Made by a program: the position numbers and the translations under genes. 64,000 nt of DNA, taken from positions 128,343-192,342 of the forward strand of contig JBAZTA010000004.1 of NCBI GenBank assembly GCA_041662125.1, in the 5' to 3' direction. This DNA is from Candidatus Omnitrophota bacterium. Lineage in GTDB: Bacteria > Omnitrophota > Gorgyraeia > Gygaellales > Profunditerraquicolaceae. Position 1 is the first letter of the stretch. Each line of letters begins with the position of its first letter. The notes below the pieces were generated by a model, which worked only from the letters and a program-made list of their open reading frames with translations, made no database searches and was not told where the DNA came from. Shown piece by piece: positions 1,247 through 54,830 of this stretch.

Positions 1247-1614
1247 GGGTTTGAGATCCTGGAACTGACACGGATTATTCCTGTAAGCTATTATAAATGT
1301 TATACCTATGCAAGTTTTCTTCTGGTTGCATAGATTTCCTCGTATTATATCTACTTATATTAGAGTTTTATTTATTTTCATTATAACTGCACCATTTTTA
1401 GATTATATTCATTTTCACTGTTTCTTTCCTTCGGGCATAAGAATTTTGTTTAAATAATAGATTGGCTTTTTTGTTATGGTAGTTAAATGAGGTGTTCTTA
1501 GGCACTCCCATTTTTTCATTTGCAGATAAACTATCGTTTAATGCCTGAAAGCCTTGTTTTGTTTCCAGATGAGCATATAATATTATATATAATCATCGGT
1601 ATGGACAGAATGTT

Positions 1615-1655
1615 CCTACAAAAGAAGATGAATAAAGCTTTGCGAAACTCTCCAG
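1615..1655 (+). repeat. Partial copy of the island upstream module (AAGAAGATGAATAAAGC..GCGAAACTC) preceding ORF 1687
   Basis: Sequence identity to the 3' part of modules at 5001-5135 and 6131-6257. Confidence 0.6.
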
Positions 1656-1686
1656 AGAGCTGAAATAGTGAAGGAAAGAGTAAATT

Positions 1687-2538
1687 ATGAGATGTCCTTT
1701 AGCAAAGAGATGGATAAAAAGGCTATTTAGAGATATGTGTCGAAGTTTCTGTAAGCAAAATAAAATAGAGCGTGTTTATTGGATTGTTGTTTGTATCGCG
1801 ATAATAATATTTGGAATCAATATGGGGTTATTTTGGTTCTCGTTATTTATTAGTGTAGTGGTTATTTTGGGAGGAGCTCTCGCTACAAAAGATAATAAAA
1901 ATGTGGGTTTAATGGTAGCAACCCTTCTTTTTGCTATAGTGACATTCCAGAAACAAAACCAAAACTTTAGTAAGCAATTAGATATGCAATCACAAGCTCT
2001 AAAGAAGCAAATTGACAACTTTGAGCTGTCGAAGAAGAATAGCGAAATACAATATACTCCTGACCTTAGAGCGCTTGTAGAATGTAAAGAAATATATGCT
2101 GGCACTAGAGAGATTAATAAAGCTGGCAGAATGGATGATTCTATAGTAATACCCATAAAGATTTATAATAGAGCTTATGGATATGCCAAGGATGTTACTT
2201 TGGCTATGTGTTATAATCATGGGGGAGAAGATAAAATTCTTAAGATAGATGTTCCTTTTATGAAGGGTGGAGAAAGTTACCAGGTTAGCTTTGCTCCATC
2301 TGTTGACAACGGATTTCGCGAATTGTTTCTGAATAGCACGAAAACATTTAAAGTAAAAATAATACTAGATTGGAAAGATACGTCTGGCAAAAAATATAGG
2401 TCCGTTGAGAATTTTACTTTAACTCATGAAAAGCAGGGTTTAGACGCTTCAGAAAGCTTTATTTTTAAATCTTTAGGATTTTTTAGCAGTTTAGATAATG
2501 ATATCCAAACGATTAATAAGCAAGGCGATAACAGGTAA
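1687..2538 (+). CDS. Hypothetical membrane-anchored protein (283 aa; two N-terminal TM helices and a soluble C-terminal domain)
   Basis: Long ORF in the AT-rich island with a hydrophobic N-terminus; no recognisable catalytic motif. Confidence 0.5.
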   Translation: MRCPLAKRWIKRLFRDMCRSFCKQNKIERVYWIVVCIAIIIFGINMGLFWFSLFISVVVILGGALATKDNKNVGLMVATLLFAIVTFQKQNQNFSKQLDMQSQALKKQIDNFELSKKNSEIQYTPDLRALVECKEIYAGTREINKAGRMDDSIVIPIKIYNRAYGYAKDVTLAMCYNHGGEDKILKIDVPFMKGGESYQVSFAPSVDNGFRELFLNSTKTFKVKIILDWKDTSGKKYRSVENFTLTHEKQGLDASESFIFKSLGFFSSLDNDIQTINKQGDNR

Positions 2539-2610
2539 CAAGACGTTTTATATAACTATCTTAGGGTTAATGAGTTGCTAAATAAATATTTCGTTAGGGA
2601 GGGAAATTGT

Positions 2611-2665
2611 TTTGTAACTGTAGGATCTATGTGAAGATTAACAAATGGTCTAGAAAACTCTGAAG
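2611..2665 (+). repeat. Partial copy of the island upstream module (GAAATTGTTTTGTAACTGTA...TCTAGAAAACTCTGAAG) preceding ORF 2673
   Basis: Matches the central and 3' part of modules at 4771-4890, 5001-5135 and 6131-6257. Confidence 0.55.
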
Positions 2666-2672
2666 GGAAAAC

Positions 2673-3167
2673 ATGAAGAGAGTTGCCGTTTTATTGATAT
2701 TTATGGTATTAATTAGCGGGTGTGCGACTGGATATCATCAACAAGGTTTTACGGGTGGCTATACAGATATGAAATTGCAAGATGATATCTACAAGGTTGG
2801 ATTTAGAGGTAACGGTTATTGTCGTAGAGAGAGAGCGGATAATCTGGCTTTATTAAGGTGTGCTGAAGTCACTCTTAATAACGGTTATCAGTATTTTATA
2901 ATCATTGATGAAAAATCTTTAACACAGGCTAGTGCTTATACGGCTCCAGTGACAGCAAATACTCATGGAACAGTTAATACATATGGAAATCAAGCCATTT
3001 ATTCGGGCACAACTTTATATTCTGGTGGGCAAACCTATATTTATCATAAACCTTCAACAACAAATACAATAAAATGTTTTAAGGATAAACCAGAAAATAT
3101 TCCTGTTATTGTTTATGATGCAGATCAGATAAGGAACAATATTAAGGCTCAATACCATATAAAATAG
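2673..3167 (+). CDS. Hypothetical lipoprotein (164 aa)
   Basis: Signal peptide with lipobox LISGC; Tyr/Gly/Thr-rich mature part. Confidence 0.55.
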   Translation: MKRVAVLLIFMVLISGCATGYHQQGFTGGYTDMKLQDDIYKVGFRGNGYCRRERADNLALLRCAEVTLNNGYQYFIIIDEKSLTQASAYTAPVTANTHGTVNTYGNQAIYSGTTLYSGGQTYIYHKPSTTNTIKCFKDKPENIPVIVYDADQIRNNIKAQYHIK

Positions 3168-3267
3168 CTTCATCTGTATAAAAAGATAAATAGGGGACGT
3201 TCCCCCAGGGTGCGCCCTGTTGATTGGTAATGTGCTCGTAGGGTATGGGTTATGGTAAGGTTGTAAT

Positions 3268-3320
3268 TTAAAAAGATTGCTTCACCCGCCACTAAAGCGT
3301 TGGCGGGTTCGCAATGACAC
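3268..3320 (+). repeat. REP-like intergenic hairpin element, copy 1 (AAAAGATTGCTTC - CCGCCAC..GTTGGCGG stem-loop - GTTCGCAATGACAC)
   Basis: Inverted repeat CCGCCA/TGGCGG; the same flanking boxes recur at 3855-3934 and 3964-4028. Confidence 0.6.
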
Positions 3321-3470
3321 GTATTCGGTTAACAGTGGGAAACAGGTTAACAAGACGTTTTATCTAACCGTATAATTCACAATAAATTCTGAAACAATTC
3401 TTTTGATTGTTGGGGTTCAGGGGAAACGGTACTTTATTATCGATGCTTTAGGAGATAGGAGATTTTAACT

Positions 3471-3833
3471 ATGAGGAACGTGAAAGGATTTACCATGCTT
3501 CTTGGATGGATCGCTGTTGTATATTTTCCCATAATATGTTTATTAAGTATGGTAGGGGGCGCGGGAGGCACCCCGTTTAATATAATAATTTCTATTATCA
3601 TCCTTGAGTGCTCGGGTATCGGGCTTTTTATAACCGGGATTGGCATCATATTATTAAGAAAGTGGGCCTGGTGGTCTACCATGGTACTTGCTCCAGTATT
3701 TACACTTTCCGCGCTATATAGCTTATATGAGGGCATTGGGCTTGGACAATTTTTATTTTTTTATTCCTTCCCAAGCTTGCTTTTTATCCTTCTTTTATTT
3801 CCCGAAATTGAGGAGCAGTTTGTGAGGGAATAA
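3471..3833 (+). CDS. Small polytopic membrane protein (120 aa, about 4 TM helices)
   Basis: Hydrophobic segments throughout; RBS-like GGAGATAGGAG upstream. Confidence 0.45.
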   Translation: MRNVKGFTMLLGWIAVVYFPIICLLSMVGGAGGTPFNIIISIIILECSGIGLFITGIGIILLRKWAWWSTMVLAPVFTLSALYSLYEGIGLGQFLFFYSFPSLLFILLLFPEIEEQFVRE

Positions 3834-3854
3834 TTCAGGGTATACATCATTTAA

Positions 3855-3934
3855 CTTAAAAAGCAGATTCCCGCATAAACAGTAAGTAAACAAGGCCCGC
3901 CACAAAGCGTTGGCGGGCAAGCGGGAATGACAAC
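3855..3934 (+). repeat. REP-like hairpin element, copy 2 (GCCCGCCACAAAGCGTTGGCGGGC stem-loop + GGGAATGACAAC)
   Basis: Near-identical stem-loop to 3283-3305 with the shared GCGTTGGCGGG core. Confidence 0.6.
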
Positions 3935-3963
3935 TCTCAGGTTTTTGCCTTTTTGCTTTTTAC

Positions 3964-4028
3964 TTTAAAAGATTGCTTCCTGCCTACCGGCAGGCAGGCA
4001 CCCCTGCGGGGTTCGCAATGACACGGGG
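3964..4028 (+). repeat. REP-like hairpin element, copy 3 (TTTAAAAGATTGCTTC - CCTGCCTACCGGCAGGCAGG hairpin - GGTTCGCAATGACACG)
   Basis: Shares both flanking boxes with copy 1 but has a different GC-rich palindromic core. Confidence 0.55.
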
Positions 4029-4107
4029 GGAGGCTCCCGAAAGGCGAAGGGATTTTATAGAAGATGAATAAAACTTAATTAATAATTGCAGAACAAGAGG
4101 AGGCGAT

Positions 4108-4572
4108 ATGGCTAAAATAGCTAAATTAACAGTAATGGTTGCTATGTTTGTTTTGGTTTGTATTTATTGCAGTGTATCCGCCGAAACCATCACGAACGAA
4201 TTGCAGGAAGGTAGATACGTGTTAATTATGATGAACGGAAGAGCGATCGTTAATAATCGTGTCCCGGGAATGATATTAGATAGTTATAAAGGTATTGTTT
4301 GGACTTGTCAGAATCTGCAAGATGGCAAGCCTTTATGGGTTAAAACAGACCTTGGTCAAAACGGCGACAAGCAAATGACAAGAAAAAGATACATTGCCAA
4401 GATGCTTGAATGGCAAGATGCAGACTTAAGGATGCCCGCTGTTGTTTTAGATACCGATGATGGGATGGTTTGGAACTGTCCTAATATAGTTGATGGAAAA
4501 GCAACTTGGATTCAAAAAGACCTAAATGTAAATTTTCAAGAAGAGGTAAAAAAAGATGATAAGAAAAACTGA
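4108..4572 (+). CDS. Secreted hypothetical protein (154 aa) with an internal tandem duplication
   Basis: N-terminal signal peptide. Two homologous ~45-aa halves (IVWTCQNLQDGKPLWVKTDLGQNG and MVWNCPNIVDGKATWIQKDLNVNF), each with a conserved Cys. RBS AGGAGG. Confidence 0.5.
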   Translation: MAKIAKLTVMVAMFVLVCIYCSVSAETITNELQEGRYVLIMMNGRAIVNNRVPGMILDSYKGIVWTCQNLQDGKPLWVKTDLGQNGDKQMTRKRYIAKMLEWQDADLRMPAVVLDTDDGMVWNCPNIVDGKATWIQKDLNVNFQEEVKKDDKKN

Positions 4573-4770
4573 TTTGTTTTATTTAATAATGCTATTCTCA
4601 ATATCTATTCTGAACATGAGTTGCGCTTCATCTAATAAAAACTTTAGAGATGCTCCAGGTGTTTTAAAAACAGATACTCGTTCTACTTCTGGAGTTAATA
4701 AGTAAATAGCCTAATTAAATTAGGTGACAGCCACTTTGGGGACAGGCATTTGAGTGGGTTTTGTATCCTA

Positions 4771-4890
4771 GACGCTGTATGTAATTATCAGGGGTTGTTC
4801 GGGTTAAAAGCAATTAATTTGCTGAAGTAAGAAATAATTGTTTTGTAAGTCCAAGAACTATAGGGAGATGGATATAGCGTCTAGAAACTA
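4771..4890 (+). repeat. Island upstream module, copy E1 (~120 nt: ACGCTGTATGTAATTA...GAAATAATTGTTTTGTAA...)
   Basis: About 75-80% identical to 5001-5135 and 6131-6257; sits in tandem with E2 in the 600-nt spacer before ORF 5180. Confidence 0.65.
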
Positions 4891-5000
4891 CTTTGATGAA
4901 GCTAGTAAAATTACTGAAATCTTTGGTATATACTTAGAACATATATCTGGAAAACTCGCTTTCGTGTTTGGTGTACATATCCCGAAAGAAACTTTAGGAA

Positions 5001-5135
5001 TATCGTAAACGCTGTATGTAATTAATAGCGATTATTCGATTTATAAAACAATTACTTTGTTATAATAAAACTAAGAGTTTTGTAACTGTAATATCTATAA
5101 GAAGATGAATAAAGCGACTGCGAAATCTCAGAATT
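5001..5135 (+). repeat. Island upstream module, copy E2 (~135 nt), ending ~45 nt before the start of ORF 5180
   Basis: Collinear with copy F (6131-6257). Contains the mini-ORF ATGAATAAAGCGACTGCGAAATCTCAGAATTTTTAG, which is also present in copy A. Confidence 0.7.
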
Positions 5136-5179
5136 TTTAGAAAATAATAAATAGGCGTGGTTCCTGGTCTATAATTACT

Positions 5180-6112
5180 TTGAGTGGAGGGTCGATGAGC
5201 AAGGGAAAATGGGGGGAAAGTTTCTTAAAATCAGGTTTGCCGCTGGAGTATTTGACACTAATGACTTTTAGATCGCTTGGCTGGCATTGTGATACACATA
5301 TCGAATATGAAAGAAAAAATCGAGAGGGTAATAGTTCTTGGTTTGAGTTGGATTTGATGGCTTCTTATCACAAGAGAAATCAAGATACCGAATTGGCTTT
5401 CTTAGTTGAATGCAAATATCACGATTTAAGTAGGTTTTGGTTTTTTTTACCACATATAAAGTCAAGTTGGCATTTTGATGATAGAGTTCTTAACGTCGGC
5501 CCGTTACAAACATTAGCTAAGCCAAGAAACTCAACTTTTTTAGAGTTTGCTCCAACATCAAGTGGGGGTATAGTTGTGGCAGAAAATGGTTCAAAGCAAG
5601 ATAATGCAGTGTGTACGGCAATTCAGCAGCTTACAAATAGTTTCGTTCCAATCTGTATGTCCACGATGTTTAATTATAATATAGATTTTTACAATGTTAG
5701 AGAGGGGCACGACTTTCAGATATATTCTACGGCACTCATTCCCATGGTTGTTACAAATGCCAAAATTTACAGATTAAAATCCACAGTTACAGATATTGAT
5801 ATAATACGGAAAGCAGCGTCACCAAAAGAAATAGCTGATGAAATCCCGTGGACCTGGTGCTATTTTGATCTACCGATGTCTCAGCTTAACAGCAATTATG
5901 TTTCAATTAATGAGCATGAGAAAAAGGAGAAAGAGTTAATTTGTAGGTATGCTCAGATTAAAAATAGCTTATCAAGGTTTGAGAATCGTCCTAATTGGGT
6001 GCTAATTACAAGCATAATAAATTTACAAAATGTCATTGAGACTATTTCAAACAATTTTATGAAGTTGCCCACAATTGCAATTAATAGTGTTCTTAGAAAT
6101 CATAGACGTTGA
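5180..6112 (+). CDS. Hypothetical protein (310 aa) with an N-terminal PD-(D/E)xK (restriction-endonuclease-like) fold signature
   Basis: The motif ...SWFELDLMASY...(20 aa)...LAFLVECKYHD gives a D ... E-x-K arrangement with spacing typical of PD-(D/E)xK nucleases. The C-terminal ~200 aa are unassigned. Start could alternatively be the ATG at 5195, which has an RBS GGAGGG. Confidence 0.5.
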   Translation: MSGGSMSKGKWGESFLKSGLPLEYLTLMTFRSLGWHCDTHIEYERKNREGNSSWFELDLMASYHKRNQDTELAFLVECKYHDLSRFWFFLPHIKSSWHFDDRVLNVGPLQTLAKPRNSTFLEFAPTSSGGIVVAENGSKQDNAVCTAIQQLTNSFVPICMSTMFNYNIDFYNVREGHDFQIYSTALIPMVVTNAKIYRLKSTVTDIDIIRKAASPKEIADEIPWTWCYFDLPMSQLNSNYVSINEHEKKEKELICRYAQIKNSLSRFENRPNWVLITSIINLQNVIETISNNFMKLPTIAINSVLRNHRR

Positions 6113-6130
6113 AAACCCGGACGTTGAGGA

Positions 6131-6257
6131 TATCGTAGACGTTGCACGTAATTAACAGTGACTATTTGATTTATGAAACAATTACTTTGGTACGGTCAGA
6201 AATAATTGTTTTGTAACTGTATGAATTTTAGGAGATAAATAAAGCGTTTAGGAAACT
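6131..6257 (+). repeat. Island upstream module, copy F (~127 nt), immediately preceding ORF 6258
   Basis: Collinear with E2; the conserved AATAAAGCG...GAAACT box lies just before the ATG. Confidence 0.7.
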
Positions 6258-7661
6258 ATGAAAGCATCTGATTTAAAAGATTGGATAGAAATAATACAAA
6301 GAATAAAAAAGATATGGTCAAGTCCTGCAGGGCTGTTATTGTTGAATATCGTTATTTTATCTGCTTATTATGGCCCCCTAAAATGTTTAATCGGTGATTT
6401 TACTGACTTAATCATCCCAAAATACTCATTGCTCTTTATAAAGACTGCTCCTTTTGTTATTGTTATTTTATTGATAATTACATGGTTGTTAAATAGACGA
6501 TTGCCAAAATTTTCTAATAAAGAACTTGGAATTCTATTCTGTCCATTACTTGAAGAGAAAACAAGCGATGTTGTTGATAGATTAAAAAGAAGTTTACATA
6601 GGGAAATTAAGGAATTTGGTTTAGGCTTAAAGTTAAAAACTTTACCAGCTAATTATGAAATTAATGATACTCCTCGTTCATATCAGATAAGAGAAAAAAC
6701 TAATGCGTATCTTGTAATTTGGGGTAATTTTTGTAAGGGAAACATTAACGAACATAAATCAATAGGGTTTCCTAGGTTATCGTTTACTTTCAAGCAGCCA
6801 CCCATTTTAGTAAATTTAGTGCCACATTTTGGGGTAGATATTGGTCTTGGTATGTTTGGGAAGCATTGGTTTGTTCAGGAGAACAACGATTTTTGGGATA
6901 TTGAAAGTCTATCTAATAATATCACAGAAGCTTCCTTAAATATTCTAGGTAAAATACTTTTACTGGCCGAAGATTTTGATAGGGCAATTGTTATTCTTAC
7001 TCATCTTCTAAATAGCTACTTACTGCCCAAAATAGATTCTAATAAGCCTTTTTTGAAAGAATTTATATTTTCAGTTAAGAGAGCCTTGGGGTATTCTTAT
7101 CGTGGAAAGTCATTAAAAATTTATAGAGAAAACATATTCAATAAAATCGGAGATAAAGAACTGCCTTCTGAAGCAATTAAAAAATGCATGGCTTTAATAA
7201 AATCAGCGATAACGTTAGACTCTAAGAATGCTGACCATTATTTAAGCTCTGGTATCTTAAACTTTCTGTTAGGGAATATGAAAGATGCTATTGATGATAT
7301 AGCTAAAGCGAGAACGTATAATTTTAGAGAGGATGGTGTGTCGCATTTGTCTGGTGGTTTTCTTTATTTTTTCAATGGTAATATGAAAAAAGGCTTAGAA
7401 CAATATCGCCGAGCGTTTAAAAAGGAAATTCCCCCTGTTTCGCTAGTTGAGGTCCTTGTATTCATAAATAAGATTCTTGATAAGTATCCTGAAAAAATAC
7501 AATTGCATTTGGCCCTAGGTATAATTAATAAAGAAAGATATGACCAAAAAATTGCTAAACAGGAACTGAGGTTGTTTATAGAGAAGGCAAAGGCAGCTAA
7601 TGTTTTTAATGAATATATTCCAATTGTAGAAGTGATGCTTCGAGAGCTATCCCCTAATTAA
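6258..7661 (+). CDS. Hypothetical 2-TM membrane protein with a cytoplasmic TPR-like C-terminal region (467 aa)
   Basis: Two hydrophobic helices in the first 80 aa; helical-repeat-like sequence in the C-terminal half; no catalytic motif recognised. Confidence 0.5.
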   Translation: MKASDLKDWIEIIQRIKKIWSSPAGLLLLNIVILSAYYGPLKCLIGDFTDLIIPKYSLLFIKTAPFVIVILLIITWLLNRRLPKFSNKELGILFCPLLEEKTSDVVDRLKRSLHREIKEFGLGLKLKTLPANYEINDTPRSYQIREKTNAYLVIWGNFCKGNINEHKSIGFPRLSFTFKQPPILVNLVPHFGVDIGLGMFGKHWFVQENNDFWDIESLSNNITEASLNILGKILLLAEDFDRAIVILTHLLNSYLLPKIDSNKPFLKEFIFSVKRALGYSYRGKSLKIYRENIFNKIGDKELPSEAIKKCMALIKSAITLDSKNADHYLSSGILNFLLGNMKDAIDDIAKARTYNFREDGVSHLSGGFLYFFNGNMKKGLEQYRRAFKKEIPPVSLVEVLVFINKILDKYPEKIQLHLALGIINKERYDQKIAKQELRLFIEKAKAANVFNEYIPIVEVMLRELSPN

Positions 7662-7688
7662 AAGCTCTGATTCTTTAAGGGTAAAGTT

Positions 7689-7830
7689 TTAGAATTTTAA
7701 TAACTCGATAGGTTTAACTTTTAGAGCTTTGGCAAGTCTTTCAATAGTATTAATTTCTGAAGCGGGAAGAGTTTTTTCCCAGACTTTCTTAATAATACCC
7801 TGCAACCCCGGGGGTAAGTTACAATAGAAG
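7689..7830 (-). pseudogene. Truncated XRE-family HTH remnant (C-terminal helix region only)
   Basis: The minus-strand translation ...GLQGIIKKVWEKTLPASEINTIERLAKALKVKPIELLKF* resembles the C-terminal half of Cro/CI-type HTH_3 domains (L.KLAKAL.V..DELL). No intact N-terminal helix-turn-helix or start codon is present. Confidence 0.3.
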
Positions 7831-7990
7831 TAGATTGATATGTTTTTAGGGGATTGCTTTCAAATCTACCGTCTTCTAAAGTAAATTAGAGGTGGTTCTA
7901 AGAGCTACCTATCCGAATTTAAGAGCTATTAATTTCGCTCTATACCTTAGTAATCCCGGGGACACATCACTTAATTGTCACTGTTTTGGT

Positions 7991-8043
7991 TTAAGACCCG
8001 GTCTTGGCTGGTATTAAAAACTGCTTGTTAAGACCGGGTCTTA
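7991..8043. repeat. Two copies of a 13-15-bp perfect palindrome, TTAAGACCCGGTCTT and TTAAGACCGGGTCTTA
   Basis: The self-complementary GC-rich motif AAGACCSGGTCTT occurs twice within 40 nt; the same motif recurs at 52671-52710. Confidence 0.6.
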
Positions 8044-8148
8044 TTGCTTAGGAAATCATGCTTTACAGCACCCAGTAAATCAGGTATAATTAATTTTCGA
8101 TCCCACTATCACCGCTGCTTATTTACGTCTCAAAGTGTCATAGATTAT

Positions 8149-8220
8149 TGCCCTGTCGTCTAATTGGTAGGACTTCAGATTCTGGATCTGACTATCATGG
8201 TTCGATTCCATGCGGGGCAG
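8149..8220 (+). tRNA. tRNA-Gln (anticodon CUG)
   Basis: Hand-folded cloverleaf: acceptor TGCCCTG/CGGGGCA (U1-A72 as in bacterial tRNA-Gln), D-stem GTCT/GGAC, anticodon stem TCAGA/TCTGA with loop TTCTGGA, T-arm CATGG-TTCGATT-CCATG. Confidence 0.8.
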
Positions 8221-8242
8221 TTCTGCTTCGCCCATCAATAAG

Positions 8243-8340
8243 CAAAGCTGCGGTGGGGCTTCGCAGGAACAAGTTCTGTTCGTCGTTCAACATACAAAGC
8301 TGCGGTGGGGCTTCGCAGGAAGTGGGGGCTTCGCTTGGAA
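8243..8340 (+). repeat. tRNA-linked repeat: two direct copies of CAAAGCTGCGGTGGGGCTTCGCAGGAA plus a degenerate third
   Basis: Copies at 8243-8269 and 8295-8321. Each can form a CTGCG...CGCAG stem around the GTGGGGCTT core and is homologous to the elements after tRNA-Glu and at 43866. Confidence 0.6.
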
Positions 8341-12479: not shown

Positions 12480-12806
12480 ATGGTAAAAAAGAATTGTTGG
12501 GAAGTTAAAAAATGCGGAAGAGAGCCCGGTGGTGCCAAAGTGAAAGAATTGGGTGTCTGTCCTGCGGCGATTGAAGGCAGCGTCAACGGCGTTAATTGCG
12601 GCAAAAATGCCGGCAGGTGCTGTTGGGCAGTGGCGGGGACTTTTTGTGACGATAAAGTTTCTGGTTCTTTTGCTTCCAAAATAACATCGTGTGTTAATTG
12701 CGATTTCTTTAAAACGGTTGTTTTAGAAGAAGGGCAAGACTTAAAAACGACAAAGGATATTTTAGAAAAATTGTATAGCCAAAAGAAGAGTAACAAAAAA
12801 GATTGA
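12480..12806 (+). CDS. Small cysteine-rich protein with two CW motifs (two-CW-like domain), 108 aa
   Basis: Motifs NCWEVKKCG and RCCWAVAGTFC plus additional CxxC (CVNC). No signal peptide. Likely metal- or redox-binding. Confidence 0.5.
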   Translation: MVKKNCWEVKKCGREPGGAKVKELGVCPAAIEGSVNGVNCGKNAGRCCWAVAGTFCDDKVSGSFASKITSCVNCDFFKTVVLEEGQDLKTTKDILEKLYSQKKSNKKD

Positions 12807-37986: not shown

Positions 37987-38231
37987 TTTTCACTTTTTTA
38001 TTTTAGGTATTTCGTATTGAAAGATTATTCGTGGCTTAACTGGGGGCTCTTCAACGCCATATAATCAGCCAAAGCGCAAAATACAACCACGTCTTTCCCG
38101 GATAATTTTAGCCAAGATTAATTTAAAGTATATACCAATCACTTTGAGATGGGAAGGGAAATCTTATTGCAAGAAAACCGTATTTGTAATTACCTTGACA
38201 CCGTTGCCGTGCGTAAAGTAAAATATAGTTT

Positions 38232-39884
38232 ATGAGAAGAAAAATCCTGATAAATATAACCTTGGTTTCAGTAATATTGATAACAGCAGCTGTTGTCAGG
38301 TTCGGCGGAATAGATAAATACGACCTATGGTTTGATGAATTAATAACCGACAATTTTTCTTATCAAAATTTAAATAGTATGGCTCGTTGGTCAAAAATGA
38401 CACCTTTAAACTGTTTCTTGGAAGCACTCCAGAATGATAAGCATCCTCCTTTATATTACGGCCTTGTCTATGGCTATAGCGTTTTTGGGGGAAACGGAAA
38501 GTCTTTGAGAGTCTTATCTGCAATATTTAGCTTTTTTTCTTTAGTCATCATTTATTTTTGTGCATGCCTTTTATTTGGCAGAAAAGCCGGCCTTTACGCA
38601 CTAATTATCATGGCTTTAAGCCCATTTCAGATTTGGTATGCTCAAGAAGCGCGCCCCTATGCGTTATCATGCTTCTTTTCTTTACTTTTAATTTTCTTTT
38701 TCTTGAAAGCCTTAAAGACCGGCAAGACAAAATTTTGGTTTTATTTTATACTATCAGCAATTCTTGCAATTTATACAAGCTATTATAATCTTTTTTTAAT
38801 TGTATTCTCCGGACTCAGTTTATTTTTTAAAGTGAATCGGCAACACTTGAAAAGGTGGTTTTTATCAATCACTGCAGTAGGCGTAGCCTTTTTGCCTTTG
38901 CTGCCTCTTTTAAAAATTCAAATGGGATCTCTGGGGGGGAGTTTCTGGCTGCCCCCCTCTGCCGCGCATTCGATGATATTAACTTTTGCTGTTTTTAACC
39001 TTGGATATTCGGCCTCGTTTTTAGAACTAAACGGTGCCCTGAGCTTATCGTGCCTCTTATTTTCTTTAGGAGCATTTGCATATTATCGCTCAAATAAAGA
39101 GGATGCTCTTTTTCTTGTTTCATGGTTTTTGTTGCCGGTTCTGACAATCTATTTAATTTCTCGCGAATTTGTGCCTGTTTTTATCACCAGGCAGCTAATT
39201 ATCTTTACTCCTTTCTGGTATTTATTTATAGCACAGGGAATTGTTTCACTTAAGAATAGAATGTTAAGACAGCTTTCGATTATAGGTATTTGTTTATTAA
39301 TGGTATCTTCACTTGCAGGCTATTATCGCGGCTTTATGTTTATATCTAAATCCAACCTGGAATTCTACGCGGGAGTTCATAAGAAAAAAAATTACAGAAA
39401 TTTATTAGGGAGTGTTTTTAATGCGTATAAGCAAAGAGATGCCATCGTCGTTTCTGACATTCAGTCGCTTGTTCTTACAAGCCCTCTACGCAGGCAGTAT
39501 AAATATTCTATTGATCGGGATTCCTGCGCCTTCATTTTTTATCCGCACGCACTTAGTAACTATGAAAGAAAAATTTTACAAATAGACGGGGTTATCAAGA
39601 ATCTGCCCAAAAAAGAGCAAAAAGATTTATATATTCTTAAACTGCCGAACCGTAGCGCGATACGCCAGATAGACAAGTTTGAAGCTAATAAGGAATATTT
39701 TGACCGGCTATGGCTGATTTCATCGTCGTGGGGAACCGGTTTATCTCTCTCTTGTAATTCTCAGAAGGCGAGAGCATACATGTTGAGAAACTATGAAAAA
39801 ATTGAAGAGTTGCAACATGATGGGATCATCGCGGAACTTTTTAATATTTCAAAAAAGAAGGTTACACAGCCCTGGTCGCATTAA
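38232..39884 (+). CDS. GT-C family glycosyltransferase (ArnT/PMT-like, GT39/GT83-type) with periplasmic C-terminal domain
   Basis: Polytopic membrane protein with a DE motif in the first periplasmic loop (LWFDELITD); about 11 TM helices followed by a soluble C-terminal domain. Confidence 0.7.
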   Translation: MRRKILINITLVSVILITAAVVRFGGIDKYDLWFDELITDNFSYQNLNSMARWSKMTPLNCFLEALQNDKHPPLYYGLVYGYSVFGGNGKSLRVLSAIFSFFSLVIIYFCACLLFGRKAGLYALIIMALSPFQIWYAQEARPYALSCFFSLLLIFFFLKALKTGKTKFWFYFILSAILAIYTSYYNLFLIVFSGLSLFFKVNRQHLKRWFLSITAVGVAFLPLLPLLKIQMGSLGGSFWLPPSAAHSMILTFAVFNLGYSASFLELNGALSLSCLLFSLGAFAYYRSNKEDALFLVSWFLLPVLTIYLISREFVPVFITRQLIIFTPFWYLFIAQGIVSLKNRMLRQLSIIGICLLMVSSLAGYYRGFMFISKSNLEFYAGVHKKKNYRNLLGSVFNAYKQRDAIVVSDIQSLVLTSPLRRQYKYSIDRDSCAFIFYPHALSNYERKILQIDGVIKNLPKKEQKDLYILKLPNRSAIRQIDKFEANKEYFDRLWLISSSWGTGLSLSCNSQKARAYMLRNYEKIEELQHDGIIAELFNISKKKVTQPWSH

Positions 39885-41577
39885 AAACACGGTCTTCGGG
39901 TTGTGGAACAAAATCAGCCAGGGGAACCTCCAGGCTCTCCCTGCACAACCTGCTATCATATTTTCCGCTAACAAAGAGTTCATTAAATAAATATAAATAA
40001 ACCAATTGTAGGATAGGCTCAGAATAAGCTTCGGGTTTTTTACAAATCGTCCGGACATAAGCCTTTCCTACGATTTTCTCAATAAATGTTGTTTGAATGA
40101 TAGCTAATACAGATTTCAAGTCCTCAAACATAAGATATTCTGTATCGGTGCTGCCGCCGTGTTTCCGATGCGCGAAAACACCAGCTACCCTAGGCAAAAC
40201 TAATCGTTCCACAGATTTCTTAAAAAACATTTTCTTTGAATTTAGTTTTCCCAGCTTTTTACTTATCGCTTGCGTAGTTTTATTGATGTAGACATAAAGG
40301 CCCTGCGTACCAAAGCTATTAAGCATAATCCCATTTTTTTTGAGGATAAAGTCGAAATTCGTATCATATGTTGCTTTTACATTCGGTCGTACCCTGGCGA
40401 TTACTTTTCTATGGATCGGTTCATTTTTTTTCTTAATCAAGTAATACACATCGCCAATAATTGATAATTGAACCAGTAGTTTTATTTTCTCTTTAAGCCT
40501 GTCGAATATTGAAATCCGGTTCTGATCCAATATTTGATCAGCGCACTCTCCCAAAAAAACAGCCAGTGCGTTTTTTTCACATAAAACTTTACCCAACGCA
40601 TACTGCAAGAATATGCCCTTTTCAAATACATACCCTTCAAGCCGCCACAAAATATCCGGTAACGCCTGAATAAGCGCGGGGGAGATTATGTGAACTGCGC
40701 TATCAACTGTGCTATAGAACTTAAGAATCTCTTTAACCTGAGGAATCTCATTTTCTTTCTGGCCGCCAATAGTTACGGCGCAAATTTTATCTGCCCCCGA
40801 ATCCTTTAGAGTATGTAAAATAAAATTCGAATCATATCCAGAACTGAGGGCTAAGAAGCGGGTTTTTTGAACCAATGCGCTACACAATATCCTGGCATTA
40901 TCTTGAATTGAGGCTATTAGATTTTCCTTTGCATCAGATAGAGATGGTTGCTCAATTAATGGCTGGCATTTACAAACATTACAAGCGGACCTTTCTACTT
41001 CAAACGAGATGAATGTGTTAGGAACCAACTTTTTTACATGCTTTATGAGGGTTGATTCTCCCGGAACGGTATTTCCGTTAGACAAAAAAGCAAATATAGA
41101 CGTATAATCTAGCTCGCGGATAAATTTTGAGTTATTTAAGAGCAATTTTAAACTCGTGCTAAACGCGAACCCATCCTCGTTATTTAGATAATACAATGGC
41201 AAATTTGACCCGTGGTTATCCTGAAAACACAACCCCTTGCGAAGCTTATTATCAAAAATTATGACCGTGAATATTCCATCTAGCTTGTCAATGAATTTGA
41301 TCCCTTCCAAACGGTATAACTCTTCAACAACAGCCACATCATCACAAAGGTCAATTTTTATCTGTTTCTTAATCTTACTTAAATTCGAAATATAGCCGAT
41401 GAGAGCGCATAGAATATCAGTTTTTTCATTATAAAAAAAAGGATTTTTACCATGCTTAAGCGCAACAATCCGATTGATGTATAAGTCTATCCAGGTGTTT
41501 CTAAAATGATTACATTCCCGTATTTCTTGACCAACATCCGCTTTTGCCCAGTTTACTTTGCCATAAATGTAATTCAT
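39862..41577 (-). CDS. Asparagine synthetase-like PP-loop amidotransferase (AsnB family; N-terminus lacks the canonical Cys2)
   Basis: PP-loop SGGxDS variant (LALSSGYDSNF) in the central synthetase domain. The N-terminus MNYIYGKV has no MCG nucleophile. Confidence 0.65.
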   Translation of the reverse strand: MNYIYGKVNWAKADVGQEIRECNHFRNTWIDLYINRIVALKHGKNPFFYNEKTDILCALIGYISNLSKIKKQIKIDLCDDVAVVEELYRLEGIKFIDKLDGIFTVIIFDNKLRKGLCFQDNHGSNLPLYYLNNEDGFAFSTSLKLLLNNSKFIRELDYTSIFAFLSNGNTVPGESTLIKHVKKLVPNTFISFEVERSACNVCKCQPLIEQPSLSDAKENLIASIQDNARILCSALVQKTRFLALSSGYDSNFILHTLKDSGADKICAVTIGGQKENEIPQVKEILKFYSTVDSAVHIISPALIQALPDILWRLEGYVFEKGIFLQYALGKVLCEKNALAVFLGECADQILDQNRISIFDRLKEKIKLLVQLSIIGDVYYLIKKKNEPIHRKVIARVRPNVKATYDTNFDFILKKNGIMLNSFGTQGLYVYINKTTQAISKKLGKLNSKKMFFKKSVERLVLPRVAGVFAHRKHGGSTDTEYLMFEDLKSVLAIIQTTFIEKIVGKAYVRTICKKPEAYSEPILQLVYLYLFNELFVSGKYDSRLCRESLEVPLADFVPQPEDRVFNATRAV

Positions 41578-41836
41578 AAAACCTCTATGTTTTTTGGCAA
41601 CAACTCTGTCTTAAGCTTTTTCAGATTGGGGTACCGTTAATGCCTTACACCTATCCGTGCTCATAGCGCGAAGAAATAATACTATAAACACATTAACAAT
41701 AAGAATAATGAGTAAACAAATAAAAAATATGCCCATGCCATTTACTTAAATCTAAACAATCTCTTGCTAAAGAATTGCTAGAACCAAAAAATCCGTATGC
41801 ACCCATTACTGCTATAATTATAAATATTCTTTATTA

Positions 41837-42946
41837 TTAATATTTCAGGGTTTTAAAGAATGAATATAATTCTTGCGCAATCCAGCTATGCCCTTCTGGA
41901 CTCAAGTGAAATTCCTCCGGAATAAATATTCTTAATGGATTGTCCTCTTTCTGTAAATTCGAAAACAAATCTAAAAATTTTATATCATATTCAAGCGCAA
42001 TACGTTTTACATAATTTGACGCGTTCCCTGGTTGATACAAATCATTTCTCAATTCATGATTAAATTCCATTTTCGTGGGCATTACAGTTAAAATCAACTT
42101 ACATTTCTTTTGAATACATAAATTGTTTATTTCTAACAAGGTTGCTTTAAACAGGTCGTAGGATTTTTTAACTTCATCAGGAACCTCTTTCAAAAACAAG
42201 GGGGCATCGATTGAGGGTGCTCCAGCTATATGCCAGAAAACGGTAAAATGGGAAAAGATATTATCAAAATTACCAAAGGTTGTTTTTAACATTTCTTTCT
42301 GTAAGAATTGATAAAATGAAGACCGATTAGAAAGAAACCAGCAAAAACGTTCTTTCCAGGACACAGAAGGAAATTTATTACGCTTCAATGAATTGTTCGC
42401 GCCTAAAACAAAAAAACCTTTTACGTATGTCGCCCTAATATCATTGGGTGCTATTATTAAAAATATATAATCCGGCCTATACTTCGTCCCTTCATTCTGC
42501 AAAAATAATAATTCCTGATCAGTAGCCCATGCAGAGCACGAAATATTCATCACGTCATATTCGTTGCGAACATTAATCTTTTGTGCAAAAAGCTTAGTGA
42601 ATATCTCTTCATCCGATACAAAATCTCCCGCAGTATAAGAATCGCCCAAGAACATTATTCTTTTTATAGCTTCGTCTTTTTTAATAGAGTGCTCTTTATC
42701 TCTAAAGCCGATGCTATTAGTAGAAAAACTAATGGTTTTCTTGCGCGCCATTGAATATCGTCTAACACGAAGACCCTTTACAAATCGCCATCCTAAGTTT
42801 TTGTCATACGCTATTCCAGAAGGTTTGTATTGCGAGTTGATCCTGAATAGGACTTCTGCTGCCAGAAGAATTGAGAATATATAAAAGGCAGATACAATGA
42901 GTATAGTGGTAATTTTAAGAATTTTCGATGAATTCATAAAAAACAT
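41837..42946 (-). CDS. Membrane-anchored SGNH/GDSL hydrolase family protein
   Basis: N-terminal TM helix; block I MFLGDSYTAGDF. Confidence 0.7.
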   Translation of the reverse strand: MFFMNSSKILKITTILIVSAFYIFSILLAAEVLFRINSQYKPSGIAYDKNLGWRFVKGLRVRRYSMARKKTISFSTNSIGFRDKEHSIKKDEAIKRIMFLGDSYTAGDFVSDEEIFTKLFAQKINVRNEYDVMNISCSAWATDQELLFLQNEGTKYRPDYIFLIIAPNDIRATYVKGFFVLGANNSLKRNKFPSVSWKERFCWFLSNRSSFYQFLQKEMLKTTFGNFDNIFSHFTVFWHIAGAPSIDAPLFLKEVPDEVKKSYDLFKATLLEINNLCIQKKCKLILTVMPTKMEFNHELRNDLYQPGNASNYVKRIALEYDIKFLDLFSNLQKEDNPLRIFIPEEFHLSPEGHSWIAQELYSFFKTLKY

Positions 42947-43191
42947 CCTTGTGAAAGTAAAACAGCGCAGCGCCTAAGAAGTTTTACCAAAAGAAGCGAT
43001 AAGCAAAAGAGAAGATGCTTCCCGGGATTTTCGCATTATAAAAACAGTTTCAGTATAGCACTAGCCTTGAAAAATGCCAGGGAACTTAGCGGGAGATACT
43101 ATAATAAACTCTAATTGGCTTGACTATCGGGATATGTGCAGTAAAATAAAATTGGTGTTTGGTGTAAAATAAAGCTTAAAAGGAGGGTGCC

Positions 43192-43677
43192 ATGCTGAAA
43201 AATAAATTATTATTAATTTTATTTCCTTGCCTACTTTTAAGTTTATGTTTCAATTCTGTTTTTGCACAGCAAAACAATGATACTCAAGAGATACAAGAGG
43301 TTATTGAAAGATTTCTTATGGCTTTTGCAAATAATGACCTTGAATATCTAATGCAGCAATTTTCGCCAAATTATTTGGGTGAATCTGAAAATAAACCCAT
43401 GGATTTCGAAGGACTTAAATCTTTTTATAAAGATTTAATGGCCAAGTTCTTTGAGAATAATGAAGGTTATACGTATAGTGATGTGAAGATAAGCAATCTT
43501 GACATAAAAGACGATAAAGCGACTCTAGAATTAGAATCTAAACATAAGATATTGATCTTGGGGACCGCAAAAGCAGAAGTTTCTGTAAAACACAGGAAAA
43601 TAAGCCTGGTTAAAGAAAATGGCTCGTGGAAGATTGTAAATATTGTAACTTTAAAAATTTCAACGCCATCGTCTTAA
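43192..43677 (+). CDS. Secreted NTF2-like (SnoaL/DUF4440-like) protein
   Basis: Signal peptide; EVIERFLMAFANNDLEYLMQQFSPNY is typical of NTF2-fold proteins. Confidence 0.5.
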   Translation: MLKNKLLLILFPCLLLSLCFNSVFAQQNNDTQEIQEVIERFLMAFANNDLEYLMQQFSPNYLGESENKPMDFEGLKSFYKDLMAKFFENNEGYTYSDVKISNLDIKDDKATLELESKHKILILGTAKAEVSVKHRKISLVKENGSWKIVNIVTLKISTPSS

Positions 43678-43865
43678 GAAAGGCTTCGATAATTATCTTT
43701 TTAGTTTTTTTGTCCGCCTTGTTTTTCTCCGCTTATTACTCAAAAACGATTGCTTACTATTCCAAAAATCACCGAGGGATTCTATCTCTAATCTAGAAAA
43801 TTTCTTGATATGAGAAGGTATTACGGATATAATACACTTTGTAAATAAGAGATAACTTGCCGTAG

Positions 43866-43930
43866 TGTTACGGGCAAGGGCTATTCTTCTGCGCCCTCCT
43901 GTAAGTAAAGTTGTGGTAGGGCTTCGAAGA
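43866..43930 (+). repeat. Solitary copy of the tRNA-linked element (GGCTATTCTTCTGCGCCCTCCTGTAAGTAAAGTTGTGGTAGGGCTTCGAAGAAATG)
   Basis: About 90% identical to the unit at 22687-22745; preceded by a hairpin CTTGCCG-TAGTGTTA-CGGGCAAG. Confidence 0.65.
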
Positions 43931-43975
43931 AATGGCAGTAGTCTTAATTTGAGAAGGGGGCCTTTTCAATAGGAT

Positions 43976-44371
43976 ATGAAATTCCAGAAAGGGATAATTC
44001 TTTTCGGCATTATTGAAATCTGTATCGGTATGTTCATGTTCTGTGATACTTTTGTATACATGCTTGCCGGCAAACCCGCCAGGCCTCCCGAAGTTGTCAC
44101 GTTCATTTTAACCACTTCTTTAATCTCCGCTGGCCTTGGTGTCGGGATATTACGTTACCATATCCATAGCTACCATCTCCTTTTGTTCTTTTCTTGCGTC
44201 ATCATATTGAGTAAGATCCTTATTTTCGGGCATATTATTAGTTTAAACGACGCGTTAGAAACGCAGTTCCCGTTTACGCCCAGGAATATTGTCTCTATTA
44301 TGTATCATGGGATCCTGATCGCCTATTTTATTCACCCTGTAATTAAAAAACGATTTAAGGAAATAGTATGA
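43976..44371 (+). CDS. Hypothetical polytopic membrane protein (131 aa)
   Basis: Four hydrophobic helices; overlaps the start of the next gene. Confidence 0.45.
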   Translation: MKFQKGIILFGIIEICIGMFMFCDTFVYMLAGKPARPPEVVTFILTTSLISAGLGVGILRYHIHSYHLLLFFSCVIILSKILIFGHIISLNDALETQFPFTPRNIVSIMYHGILIAYFIHPVIKKRFKEIV

Positions 44372-52721: not shown

Positions 52722-53090
52722 ATGCTGATAAAGAACGAAACAAAAAATACGGTCTTAGCTGATAAAGCGGTTATAGCTAATACGCTTTTAAAGCGTATGA
52801 AAGGCTTGCTTGGTGAAAAAGAATTAGCAAGAGGGAAAGCGCTTGTTTTAGAGCCCTGTAATGCAATACATTGTTTTTTTATGCGTTTTACCATAGATGT
52901 TTTGTTTCTTGGGAAAGATAATCGTGTGGTAAAGGCCCTTCCTGAAATAAAACCGTTTCAGTTCTCTAAGATTTATTGGGGAGCTGTTAAAGTAATTGAA
53001 TTGCCTGCCAATACAATCAAGTCTACTCAAACTTCCGATGGTGATATTATCACCTTTGTAAATGTCCAATCTGGTTCTACCCCTTTCTAA
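52722..53090 (+). CDS. DUF192 (COG1430) family protein
   Basis: ...KGLLGEKELARGKALVLEPCNAIHCFFMRFTIDVLFLGKDNRVV matches the DUF192 GLM-R...GMLF...FWMKNT..LDIIF pattern. Confidence 0.55.
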   Translation: MLIKNETKNTVLADKAVIANTLLKRMKGLLGEKELARGKALVLEPCNAIHCFFMRFTIDVLFLGKDNRVVKALPEIKPFQFSKIYWGAVKVIELPANTIKSTQTSDGDIITFVNVQSGSTPF

Positions 53091-53186
53091 TCATTAGGAT
53101 TTGACAAATCAAATTCGCTATGGTATATTATTAATGAGCTTAATAATGTCCAATCTGGTTAATCATTAGTATTCTTAGGAGATAAA

Positions 53187-54767
53187 ATGGGAGTAATTTA
53201 TAAATTACATCAGGATGTGACCGATTATATTTTTGTTATTAAGAAAAAAGACCCATTATTGAGTTGTCGCAAGATTTCTGTGATCATTTCTGAGAAATTT
53301 AAAAGTAAGGTTTCAAAATCAAGTATTAATGCGGTGCTCAAACAAGCTCGTTTGAGTATGCCGGTTGGAAGAAGGCGCAAGCAAAAAAGAAACATTTTTG
53401 AGGCTGTTGGCCTTGGGGCATTTTTCCTCAAAGCCGCTGATTGCCTTACCAATGTCAGCGTCGGGTTCAATGAAATAGTGGCTCAAAAATTGGGTGTTTC
53501 GCTGCAAGATATCGCAGGTAAGACCGACTTTTTGCTTTATAAACAGCTTTTTAGCGATCCACAAAGCCGGGAAACCTTGAATCAGGTCTCTGGTTTAAAA
53601 GCCTTTGTTGGCAGTCGAATTGAAGTGAAGGAAATGGATTCTTATCTTGAAGAAATAAAACAGGTTATGACCTTACCTGCTGTTCTTTGCCAATTAATAA
53701 CGAAATCTTTTCAAGAAATCCGTTGTGTTAAGATCAGATTGATAGATGGTACGTACTTTTTGCTTGATGGCAGGTTATCTACTATTTGGCAATCGGCTGA
53801 GAATATACCTTTCGATTTCTCTGTAACATATAATGAGATAAAGAGTTATATAAAAAATATTATTGCAGGAAAACCGGTCGTTCTATTTATGGGCCCTGAA
53901 AAAAAGCAAGCAATGGGAGAGTTTTTCCGGTTTCTTATGAATTTATATTCGCAAGGTAAAAATATCTCGAATTTAGCTCTTTGTAATAATAGCTCTCAGG
54001 AGCTAGAGGTTATTGATTTTGCTGGTTTGCATGATAAAAAAATGCAGGTTATTTTTGGATTATGGCCTTGGCAATACGGGCAATACCGTAAGATCACATA
54101 TCTTGAAAAATTTAAATTTTATCGTTTCGAACAAATTAAGAAAGATTTTTATATTGCGGATGTTAATGTTGAATTTACGCAACCGATTGTAAACAATAGC
54201 CTTATATTAAGAGGTTGCGCTTTGAAAAACAGTTTAAATGAAAAGGTCAGGCTGGTGATCTTAACTAATGCGTCTGTTTCAGAGTTATCTTCCTCTGATC
54301 TTGTGGCTGCTTACTTGGAACGTTGGCCGAATTTAGAAGAAACGTATGAAGATTATAACCGCAAGAATGAGCTCTTTTTTTATACTGATGCGGCAAAATC
54401 CACCTTTTCTTTAGGGCTTTTAAATGTTAATTTAGAGCCTTCCTTGGGGCTGGATATGCTTTTTAGTTACTATTTGCAGGCGCTTGATTTATACGCGAAA
54501 TGGCGTTTTTTCCCGCAGGGATATAGAAAAAAAGATTTCTCGACGATGAATGAACTGTTTTATCAGTTGCCTTGCCAATTGAAAATAACCAAAAATAAGC
54601 TTTTATTAACATTTATTGTGCCTGCCGAGTACCCTTTTTTGAAAGATCTTTCCTATGCTTGCTGCCGCGTCAATGAAAGGGGCATAGTCTTAAAAAACGC
54701 CTACCGGCTTTTTATGGAAGTATTGCCGCGTTTAATTGATAACCCTATCGCCCTAAATAAATTATAA
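53187..54767 (+). CDS. Hypothetical protein (526 aa) embedded in the tad locus
   Basis: Long ORF with no recognised motif and no signal peptide. Confidence 0.5.
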   Translation: MGVIYKLHQDVTDYIFVIKKKDPLLSCRKISVIISEKFKSKVSKSSINAVLKQARLSMPVGRRRKQKRNIFEAVGLGAFFLKAADCLTNVSVGFNEIVAQKLGVSLQDIAGKTDFLLYKQLFSDPQSRETLNQVSGLKAFVGSRIEVKEMDSYLEEIKQVMTLPAVLCQLITKSFQEIRCVKIRLIDGTYFLLDGRLSTIWQSAENIPFDFSVTYNEIKSYIKNIIAGKPVVLFMGPEKKQAMGEFFRFLMNLYSQGKNISNLALCNNSSQELEVIDFAGLHDKKMQVIFGLWPWQYGQYRKITYLEKFKFYRFEQIKKDFYIADVNVEFTQPIVNNSLILRGCALKNSLNEKVRLVILTNASVSELSSSDLVAAYLERWPNLEETYEDYNRKNELFFYTDAAKSTFSLGLLNVNLEPSLGLDMLFSYYLQALDLYAKWRFFPQGYRKKDFSTMNELFYQLPCQLKITKNKLLLTFIVPAEYPFLKDLSYACCRVNERGIVLKNAYRLFMEVLPRLIDNPIALNKL

Positions 54768-54801
54768 ATCGAAAACGCTTGCAAAATTACCGCAAATCCC
54801 C

Positions 54802-54830
54802 TTGACATTGCTATGGGTAAATGCTATATT
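54802..54830 (+). promoter_or_regulatory. Perfect-consensus sigma70 promoter (TTGACA - 17 nt - TATATT) driving the pilin gene array
   Basis: TTGACA at 54802-54807 and TATATT at 54825-54830, followed by a ~200-nt leader before the first pilin ATG at 55037. Confidence 0.55.

Follow-up and report, generated by a model that had tools for sequence, protein, structure and literature searches.

An unannotated PD-(D/E)xK nuclease-like family and a membrane-anchored TPR family as probable chance neighbours in a low-GC stretch of a Candidatus Omnitrophota genome

The nucleases of the PD-(D/E)xK superfamily share a core fold of the order alpha-beta-beta-beta-alpha-beta, whose hallmarks are an acidic residue on strand 2, a (D/E)-x-K signature on strand 3 and often a glutamate on helix 1. 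The present work deals with two neighbouring open reading frames (ORFs) in a 64-kb stretch of DNA, hereafter the window, from a 250-kb contig of a Candidatus Omnitrophota metagenome-assembled genome. The first, ORF1, encodes a PD-(D/E)xK nuclease-like protein, and the second, ORF2, encodes a protein with predicted transmembrane (TM) helices and tetratricopeptide repeats (TPR). Both carry the annotation "hypothetical protein" (WDL87_07700 and WDL87_07705), and an original prediction had singled them out as a candidate defence or abortive-infection pair.

ORF1 displays the order of catalytic residues known from Hjc, YraN and the Mrr catalytic domain, with a glutamate on a helix, an aspartate on a strand and E-x-K on the next strand; unlike the known families, it carries this core at the N terminus, followed by about 215 conserved residues without a relative. 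Shedu SduA (DUF4263) and Hachiman HamA (DUF1837; PMC12278908) are small PD-(D/E)xK-type nucleases in defence islands, as ORF1 would be; an SduA gene precedes one homologue of ORF1 by 25 nt, and the gene for a HamB-like helicase precedes another by 148 nt. However, ORF1 and its relatives match neither model, and the HamA structures were not found by a PDB search with the ORF1 family profile and fell outside the top 50 Foldseek matches. For ORF2, the closest likeness is with the membrane-anchored TPR proteins LapB/YciM and MamA; MamA and LapB are among its Foldseek matches, and it shares with these proteins an N-terminal anchor and a predicted cytoplasmic TPR superhelix. In contrast to them, ORF2 has two TM helices and an extra alpha/beta domain, and it lacks a rubredoxin domain. 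It also differs from the 2TM effectors of CBASS-type systems, since no cyclase or other signalling partner lies nearby and the family adjoins recombinases. As to the surroundings of both genes, integron cassette arrays without integrase (CALIN; PMC4889954) resemble them in their co-oriented single ORFs and in the presence of imperfect palindromes of about 125 nt abutting stop and start codons, whereas the palindromes of the window lack conserved AAC/GTT ends and hairpin support is weak in four of the five.

The association between the two genes was examined with hidden Markov models (HMMs) of both families, which were run against every ORF of every fetched locus, with flanks of up to 10 kb. 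Among all these loci, the two families coincided in the window only. No relative of ORF2 was found in any of the 20 other loci of the ORF1 family (L005-L008, L010-L024, L031 and L033), and none of ORF1 in the six independent loci of the ORF2 family (L001, L003, L004, L025, L027 and L028). The absence of pairing includes the closest homologues, with identities of 72-83% for ORF1 and 41-47% for ORF2, and the families differ in size by about an order of magnitude (188 clusters for ORF1 vs about 1,442 representatives for ORF2). Both genes lie on the + strand, 145 nt apart, and no feature of the sequence marks them as belonging together. The gap is filled by a repeat unit of a type that also precedes a CC0125-family lipoprotein gene, a small membrane-protein gene and a 46-aa ORF, which argues for separate modules. 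Neither protein could be placed in a named defence family (SduA, HamA, Mrr, Cap4, CBASS 2TM effectors) by any of the membership tests. The joint occurrence in this genome alone most likely reflects two separately acquired genes, and the proposal that ORF1 and ORF2 form a defence pair is not supported by these sequence comparisons. This negative result matters because adjacency in a foreign-looking island had been the sole argument for a two-gene system; the comparative context removes it, and the two-gene system was set aside. We consider it rather likely that ORF1 and ORF2 are independent accessory genes, chance neighbours within a mosaic, horizontally acquired stretch, and do not make up a two-component system.

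Both genes of the original prediction exist, although the start of the first probably has to be moved. The open frame of ORF1 spans 5180-6112 on the + strand with an alternative TTG start at 5180, and the ATG at 5195 is favoured because of the GGAGG upstream of it and because this start is common to the homologues (MSKGKWGE); residue numbers are counted from this ATG. The family comprises at least 188 full-length homologues (clusters) of about 300-320 aa, none with a Pfam domain or with a name that hints at function. Its hosts include Desulfobacterota-type Deltaproteobacteria, NC10, Cyanobacteria, Nitrospirota, Acidobacteriota, Actinomycetes, Chloroflexia and Nitrosomonas, among others; it reaches at least nine phyla with a rare and patchy distribution. 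The cross-phylum identity of 35-59% points to horizontal spread. A tblastn search of ORF1 against plasmids and phages gave no match. In two cases the homologue was split into two reading frames (L016, 9953-10949; L023, 10001-10941), by frameshift, pseudogenisation or assembly error; such interruption is as expected for dispensable genes.

The FELD and VECKY stretches that the original prediction had read as a PD-(D/E)xK active site are present in ORF1 beyond chance. They are separated by 18 aa, with a spacing of 19 residues between D53 and E72. Across 33 aligned members of 42-82% identity from many phyla, the invariant positions include W6, E8, D53, E72, K74, Y75 and D77, and the N-terminal KWGESFLKSGLPLEHL stretch is nearly unchanged. 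Lack of conservation at the motif had been named beforehand as a point that would speak against this assignment, and the residues proved to be conserved. The AlphaFold model of ORF1 (predicted local distance difference test, pLDDT, 91.4; predicted template modelling score, pTM, 0.90) starts, according to DSSP, with helices at 6-12 and 15-27 and strands at 31-41, 47-62, 65-74 and 80-86. The conserved E...D...ExK thus falls on the helix-strand-strand-strand order expected for a PD-(D/E)xK core. Strands 47-62 and 65-74 form a hairpin with the turn at 63-64, so that residue 53 should pair with residue 74; from this hairpin register only, D53, E72 and K74 would share one face, with K74 opposite D53.

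Comparison of the whole ORF1 model by Foldseek yielded no significant match, with best E values of 0.058 in PDB and 0.035 in BFVD (probability 0.95) and TM-scores of at most 0.23. Weak local matches of 46-84 columns were obtained in these two independent libraries, and the named ones were mostly PD-(D/E)xK nucleases: the R2 restriction-like endonuclease domain (RLE), MspJI, AddB and Exo5 in PDB, and endonuclease I, a "restriction enzyme", VRR-NUC, DUF1064, DUF2726 and several entries named PD-(D/E)XK in BFVD, none of them significant. Sequence searches were negative. Pfam gave only chance-level matches at E ≤ 1 for the 33 members, no match was found in NCBIfam, PHROGs or PADLOC with either the protein or the family alignments, and the ORF1 family remained unmatched by the profiles of known PD-(D/E)xK families (Mrr_cat, NERD, DUF4263/SduA, DUF1837/HamA, Cap4, NucS, RecB-like). 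Alignment with hhalign against the neighbouring SduA_C and NucS_C proteins also gave nothing. The search of PDB sequences with the family profile returned chance-level matches only, the best being uL23 (E 0.1, residues 245-305). Sub-threshold uL23 matches (E 0.1-0.4) recurred over these residues (5927-6109) and are probably due to chance. The C-terminal portion of about 215 aa, left without assignment in the original prediction, found no relative in any sequence or structure search. A PD-(D/E)xK core in the predicted structure of ORF1 is well supported by motif and topology, with fold comparison falling short of proof, and ORF1 is in our judgement likely to be an active PD-(D/E)xK nuclease.

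Inspection of the genomic neighbourhoods for gene content suggested that known defence genes are enriched around the ORF1 homologue in L005, L031, L033 and L024. In L005, whose homologue is 83% identical to ORF1, the order is type I HsdM/HsdS, a PD-Lambda-5_B-like methyltransferase, a 1,008-aa protein containing a caspase and a HamB-like helicase (E 2.5e-29 for the helicase match), the homologue itself and a Prok-E2/ThiF/TCAD9/BubE group. The 72% identical homologue of L031 belongs to a co-oriented array that also contains a ThsB-like TIR protein, a Mom-like protein, the Shedu SduA gene mentioned above, just upstream of the homologue, and a GIY-YIG gene after it. In L033, the homologue (76% identity) adjoins a gene for a Dev_Cell_Death+NucS_C protein, with a Fic gene nearby, and one further homologue is located between AbiU2 and Fic on an IMG/VR contig that carries the terminase TerL. 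An all-against-all BLAST of the neighbours across the fetched loci revealed no conserved neighbour of the ORF1 family. The possibility that ORF1 acts as a HamA-like partner of a helicase was rejected, since a helicase neighbour was found in only one of 21 loci.

These loci also showed features of their own. In L005 (4827-7853), the N-terminal caspase (Peptidase_C14) is fused to the HamB-like helicase in the gene directly upstream of the homologue; no recognisable HamA was found there, and the fusion may belong to a variant of Hachiman that uses another effector. A tight block of five genes (Mom-like, unknown, SduA, ORF1 homologue and GIY-YIG) lies between two repeat copies in L031, which has an intergenic repeat of its own, about 150 nt long, at 1072-1260, 2202-2390, 4069-4220 and 7865-7953. 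L033 contains two 67-nt hairpin elements (3931-3997 and 7196-7262) that are 96% identical and lie just downstream of ORFs; their shape (ACCCCGGC...GTCAAAATT...AATTTTGAC...GCCGGGGT) resembles that of attC.

From the neighbourhoods of its closest homologues, a role of ORF1 as a stand-alone defence nuclease is plausible; overall, the chances that it serves in defence at all appear evenly balanced. Of the defence role originally proposed for both genes, this is the part that stays plausible, since the pair does not hold and a role of ORF2 in defence is only a guess. In the mechanism we favour, ORF1 would belong to a family not annotated before and would work without a partner as a PD-(D/E)xK endonuclease, probably a metal-dependent one. 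The first 90 or so residues would make up the catalytic core, to which helix 1 contributes E8, strand 2 D53 and strand 3 E72-x-K74, and the remaining 215 or so residues might select the substrate or gate the nuclease. The protein would most probably act alone, in a restriction-like or abortive-infection manner, cutting invading or damaged nucleic acid. A bolder proposal, which we put forward tentatively, is that ORF1 founds a family of single-gene antiphage nucleases in which the PD-(D/E)xK core is placed under an infection-sensing C-terminal domain of new fold, and that the ORF2 family is independently carried by integrative elements for exclusion or abortive infection. If ORF1 alone protects against phage, it would add to the known defence nucleases a compact one, about 300 aa long, whose regulatory half has no structural precedent. 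The family is present in at least nine phyla and yet invisible to current annotation, with no Pfam, NCBIfam or PADLOC model. Two unannotated families thus remain, and that of ORF1 can credibly be regarded as a new nuclease that stands alone and carries a novel domain.

Regarding ORF2, the two TM helices and the helical-repeat domain of the original prediction were both supported, by hydropathy (Kyte-Doolittle maxima of 1.68 and 2.41), by the structural model and by TPR matches, whereas an alpha/beta domain of 120 aa had been missed. The model (pLDDT 94.5) consists of an N-terminal helix, two hydrophobic helices, the alpha/beta domain and the helical-repeat domain. The NRRLPKF sequence after the second TM helix indicates, by the positive-inside rule, that the large domain is probably cytoplasmic. 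Foldseek comparison of the whole model was dominated by TPR matches (consensus TPR, MamA, OGT and PEX5; E 6e-5 to 1e-3, probability 1.0, the best at 5.7e-5), and TPR_2 was detected in 18 of 54 family members (best E 9e-9). The alpha/beta domain, with its conserved GILFxP, LIIWG and FT motifs, had no match in Pfam or among PDB sequences; by eye it resembles the first half of a TIR- or flavodoxin-like fold, but hhalign against a TIR_2 protein found nothing, and the domain is left unassigned. ORF2 would then be a membrane-anchored protein in which a two-TM hairpin is followed, on the cytoplasmic side, by a small alpha/beta domain and a TPR superhelix. At the inner membrane face, the TPR domain presumably serves to bind a protein ligand.

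A word-indexed search found only three relatives of ORF2; by full HMM scan, the family has 1,442 cluster representatives (50% identity) at E ≤ 1e-3 and 528 at E ≤ 1e-10, and the relatives listed mostly measure about 440-500 aa and can be aligned over the greater part of this length. ORF2 had no PADLOC match, nothing beyond TPR in PHROGs and no specific Pfam or NCBIfam family, with only generic, sub-threshold TPR matches, and tblastn against plasmids gave no match. The homologues of 41-47% identity are flanked by Amidohydro_2/PNP_UDP_1, by RecO and by a serine recombinase. A recombinase gene was located within about 2 kb of the ORF2 relative in several loci (serine recombinase in L004, tyrosine integrase in L027 and L028-30), together with Rep and excisionase-like genes, and tyrosine integrase was the sole neighbour family shared among ORF2 loci in the all-against-all BLAST. 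By gene content, the relatives of ORF2 look like cargo of integrative elements, and the family would travel as single-gene cargo next to recombinases. This large family (about 1,400 representatives at 50% identity) is likewise unannotated and, given its apparent association with recombinases, could be considered in a screen of cargo genes of mobile elements.

It has to be noted that several observations weigh against the interpretation of two independent genes, one of them a defence nuclease. As no structure match was significant, the fold assignment of ORF1 depends on the motif, the topology and the enrichment of nucleases among weak matches. The more distant ORF1 loci are mixed or housekeeping in character, most of them with ordinary neighbours (tRNA synthetase, LpxB, Cpn60, ketoacyl synthase), so that, as far as gene content tells, a defence context appears clear only for the closest homologues. 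PADLOC-DB 2.0.0 contained no match at E ≤ 1 for either protein, in line with the earlier statement that the genes match no recognised defence system. The contexts of ORF2 come from six independent loci of a family with about 1,400 representatives. Finally, no terminator-like site was detected between ORF1 and ORF2, so the two genes may here be transcribed together.

The low-GC (guanine plus cytosine) stretch that contains both genes (Table 1) is crossed by a repeat. A sequence model built from five copies found exactly five units (119-127 nt) in the 64 kb, all in + orientation and within 2.5-6.3 kb, each reaching roughly from where one ORF stops to where the next one starts. Two further ORFs are preceded, at 1623 and 4059, by the 3' half alone (AGAAGATGAATAAAGC). 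The copies match the model on the opposite strand as well (E 5e-8 to 9e-5), and they are therefore imperfect palindromes. The best surviving alternative builds on these units: the stretch would be a decayed integron-type cassette array with attC-like sites and no integrase, and ORF1 and ORF2 would be separate cassettes brought in by site-specific recombination at the unit of about 125 nt. The layout agrees with that of attC sites (imperfect palindromes, 57-141 nt long, each immediately behind an ORF and all pointing the same way), all ORFs are co-oriented, and in the consensus fold, which combines an outer stem CTAGACGCT/AGCGTCTAG with a long central one, compensatory change is seen in 8 of 32 pairs. 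On the other hand, the covariation term of this fold is unfavourable, only Uc folds better than shuffled sequence and keeps the outer-stem pairing intact, and the attC end triplets (AAC in R'' and GTT in R') are not conserved, with GTT at the 3' end in one of the five units. Arrays of single genes in one orientation, with intergenic repeats of their own, likewise make up the contigs of the closest ORF1 homologues, and compact genes for phage defence are known from integron cassettes (bioRxiv 10.1101/2024.07.02.601719). Against this, the unit corresponded to no Rfam family, was absent from the other loci and had 0 matches in a metagenome scan, and the recombinase motif H-x-[LFMIV]-R-H-[STAG] was found in no frame of the 64-kb window, by a crude test. 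An origin as a cassette array is in our opinion possible and somewhat doubtful. It is compatible with the independence of the two genes, to which it would add a mechanism of arrival; "cassette-like modules" is thus a description, and membership of the island in an integron is unproven.

A further alternative is that ORF1 has no part in defence and is a nuclease for a mobile element or for DNA repair (resolvase-like or target-nicking), defence islands being places that merely collect mobile DNA. The nature of the best structural matches agrees with it, as these were the endonuclease domain of the R2 retrotransposon and the repair nucleases AddB and Exo5 in PDB, with endonuclease I and VRR-NUC in BFVD; several ORF1 loci are rich in transposases, and most of the distant ones lie outside defence islands. 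However, no conserved recombinase, transposase or repair partner accompanies the family, its rare and patchy distribution across many phyla, at identities of 45-59%, is unlike that of a housekeeping repair enzyme, and some copies are interrupted, as happens to dispensable genes. We regard this alternative as improbable. A genuine, lineage-specific two-gene defence or abortive-infection system, with the nuclease controlled by or signalling to the membrane TPR protein, is very improbable, for although the genes are adjacent on one strand in a foreign-looking island, with no terminator-like site between them and no match to a known system, their families never met in the loci of either one, differ in size and are here separated by a repeat that also bounds unrelated ORFs.

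Table 1. Coordinates in the window of ORF1, ORF2, the repeat units and associated features.
Feature	Position	Strand	Remarks
ORF1, 305 aa	5195-6112	+	From ATG with GGAGG ribosome-binding site 6 nt upstream; unannotated PD-(D/E)xK-like family
ORF1 N-terminal region, about 90 aa	5195-5464	+	Proposed PD-(D/E)xK core; DSSP of AlphaFold model
E8 codon	5216-5218	+	Invariant Glu, first helix (6-12)
D53 codon (FELD)	5351-5353	+	Invariant, strand 47-62
E72-C73-K74 codons (VECKY)	5408-5416	+	E72 and K74 invariant; end of strand 65-74
ORF1 C-terminal region, about 215 aa	5465-6109	+	Strongly conserved; VTNA, WTW and RPNW motifs; confidently modelled
ORF2, 467 aa	6258-7661	+	2TM + alpha/beta domain + TPR; large unannotated family
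ORF2 transmembrane hairpin	6324-6497	+	TM1 aa 23-45, TM2 aa 55-80
ORF2 alpha/beta domain, aa 88-207 (120 aa)	6519-6878	+	GILFxP ... LIIWG ... FT
ORF2 TPR superhelix, aa 208-464	6879-7649	+	Foldseek and TPR_2 matches
Repeat unit Ua	2537-2661	+	86.7 bits; overlaps stop of ORF 1687-2538, ends 11 nt before ORF 2673-3167
Repeat unit Ub	3348-3466	+	58.4 bits; divergent copy upstream of ORF 3471-3833
Repeat unit Uc	4765-4891	+	93.3 bits; end-to-end hairpin CTAGACGCT/AGCGTCTAG, z = -2.85
Repeat unit Ud	5002-5128	+	87.4 bits; upstream of ORF1, overlaps stop of small ORF 4868-5008
Repeat unit Ue	6132-6257	+	94.1 bits; fills ORF1-ORF2 spacer, ends at ORF2 start codon
Low-GC accessory stretch	1247-8147		Six co-oriented ORFs of ≥120 aa and small ORFs; between gltX with a small lipoprotein gene and tRNA-Gln
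Possible helix-turn-helix (HTH) fragment MGVPKNTSFNYHNKK	1398-1560	-	Left island end
Truncated XRE-type HTH remnant QGIIKKVWEKTLPASEINTIERLAKALKVKPIELLKF, C-terminal half	7689-7805	-	Right island end; family assigned by eye

The compositionally foreign character that the original prediction had ascribed to the island was confirmed, with 31-39% GC over 1-8 kb vs about 40-47% in the adjacent flanks. The island is bordered on the left by gltX (21-1064) and the small lipoprotein gene, and on the right by tRNA-Gln (8148-8221). The HTH remnants at both ends look like decayed mobile-element genes. Since the island is on the 5' side of tRNA-Gln and contains no integrase, a tRNA-targeted integrative element was rejected. 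Promoter-like sites occurred at chance rate (29 observed vs 26.6 expected).

Two small ORFs of the island had no family match: that at 4556-4705, which overlaps the end of ORF 4108-4572 and encodes a 49-aa lipoprotein-like peptide, and the 46-aa ORF at 4868-5008, which is enclosed by repeat units Uc and Ud. Two intergenic gaps contain GC-rich hairpin repeats (3261-3321, 3895-3918 and 3957-4026; for example AAAAGATTGCTTC...GGGTTCGCAATGACACG and GCCCGCCAACGCTTTGTGGCGGGC), which form a family distinct from the 125-nt units. Directly 3' of tRNA-Gln there are two direct copies of a 43-nt sequence (8227-8269 and 8279-8321) that are 86% identical (...AAAGCTGCGGTGGGGCTTCGCAGGAA). Elsewhere in the window, low-GC stretches (33-38% GC) at 38000-44000 and 53000-55000 may also have been acquired, and a cysteine-rich ORF of 108 aa (12480-12806, + strand; NCWEVKKCG...CP...CG...CCW...C...C..C) is located next to tRNA-Leu.

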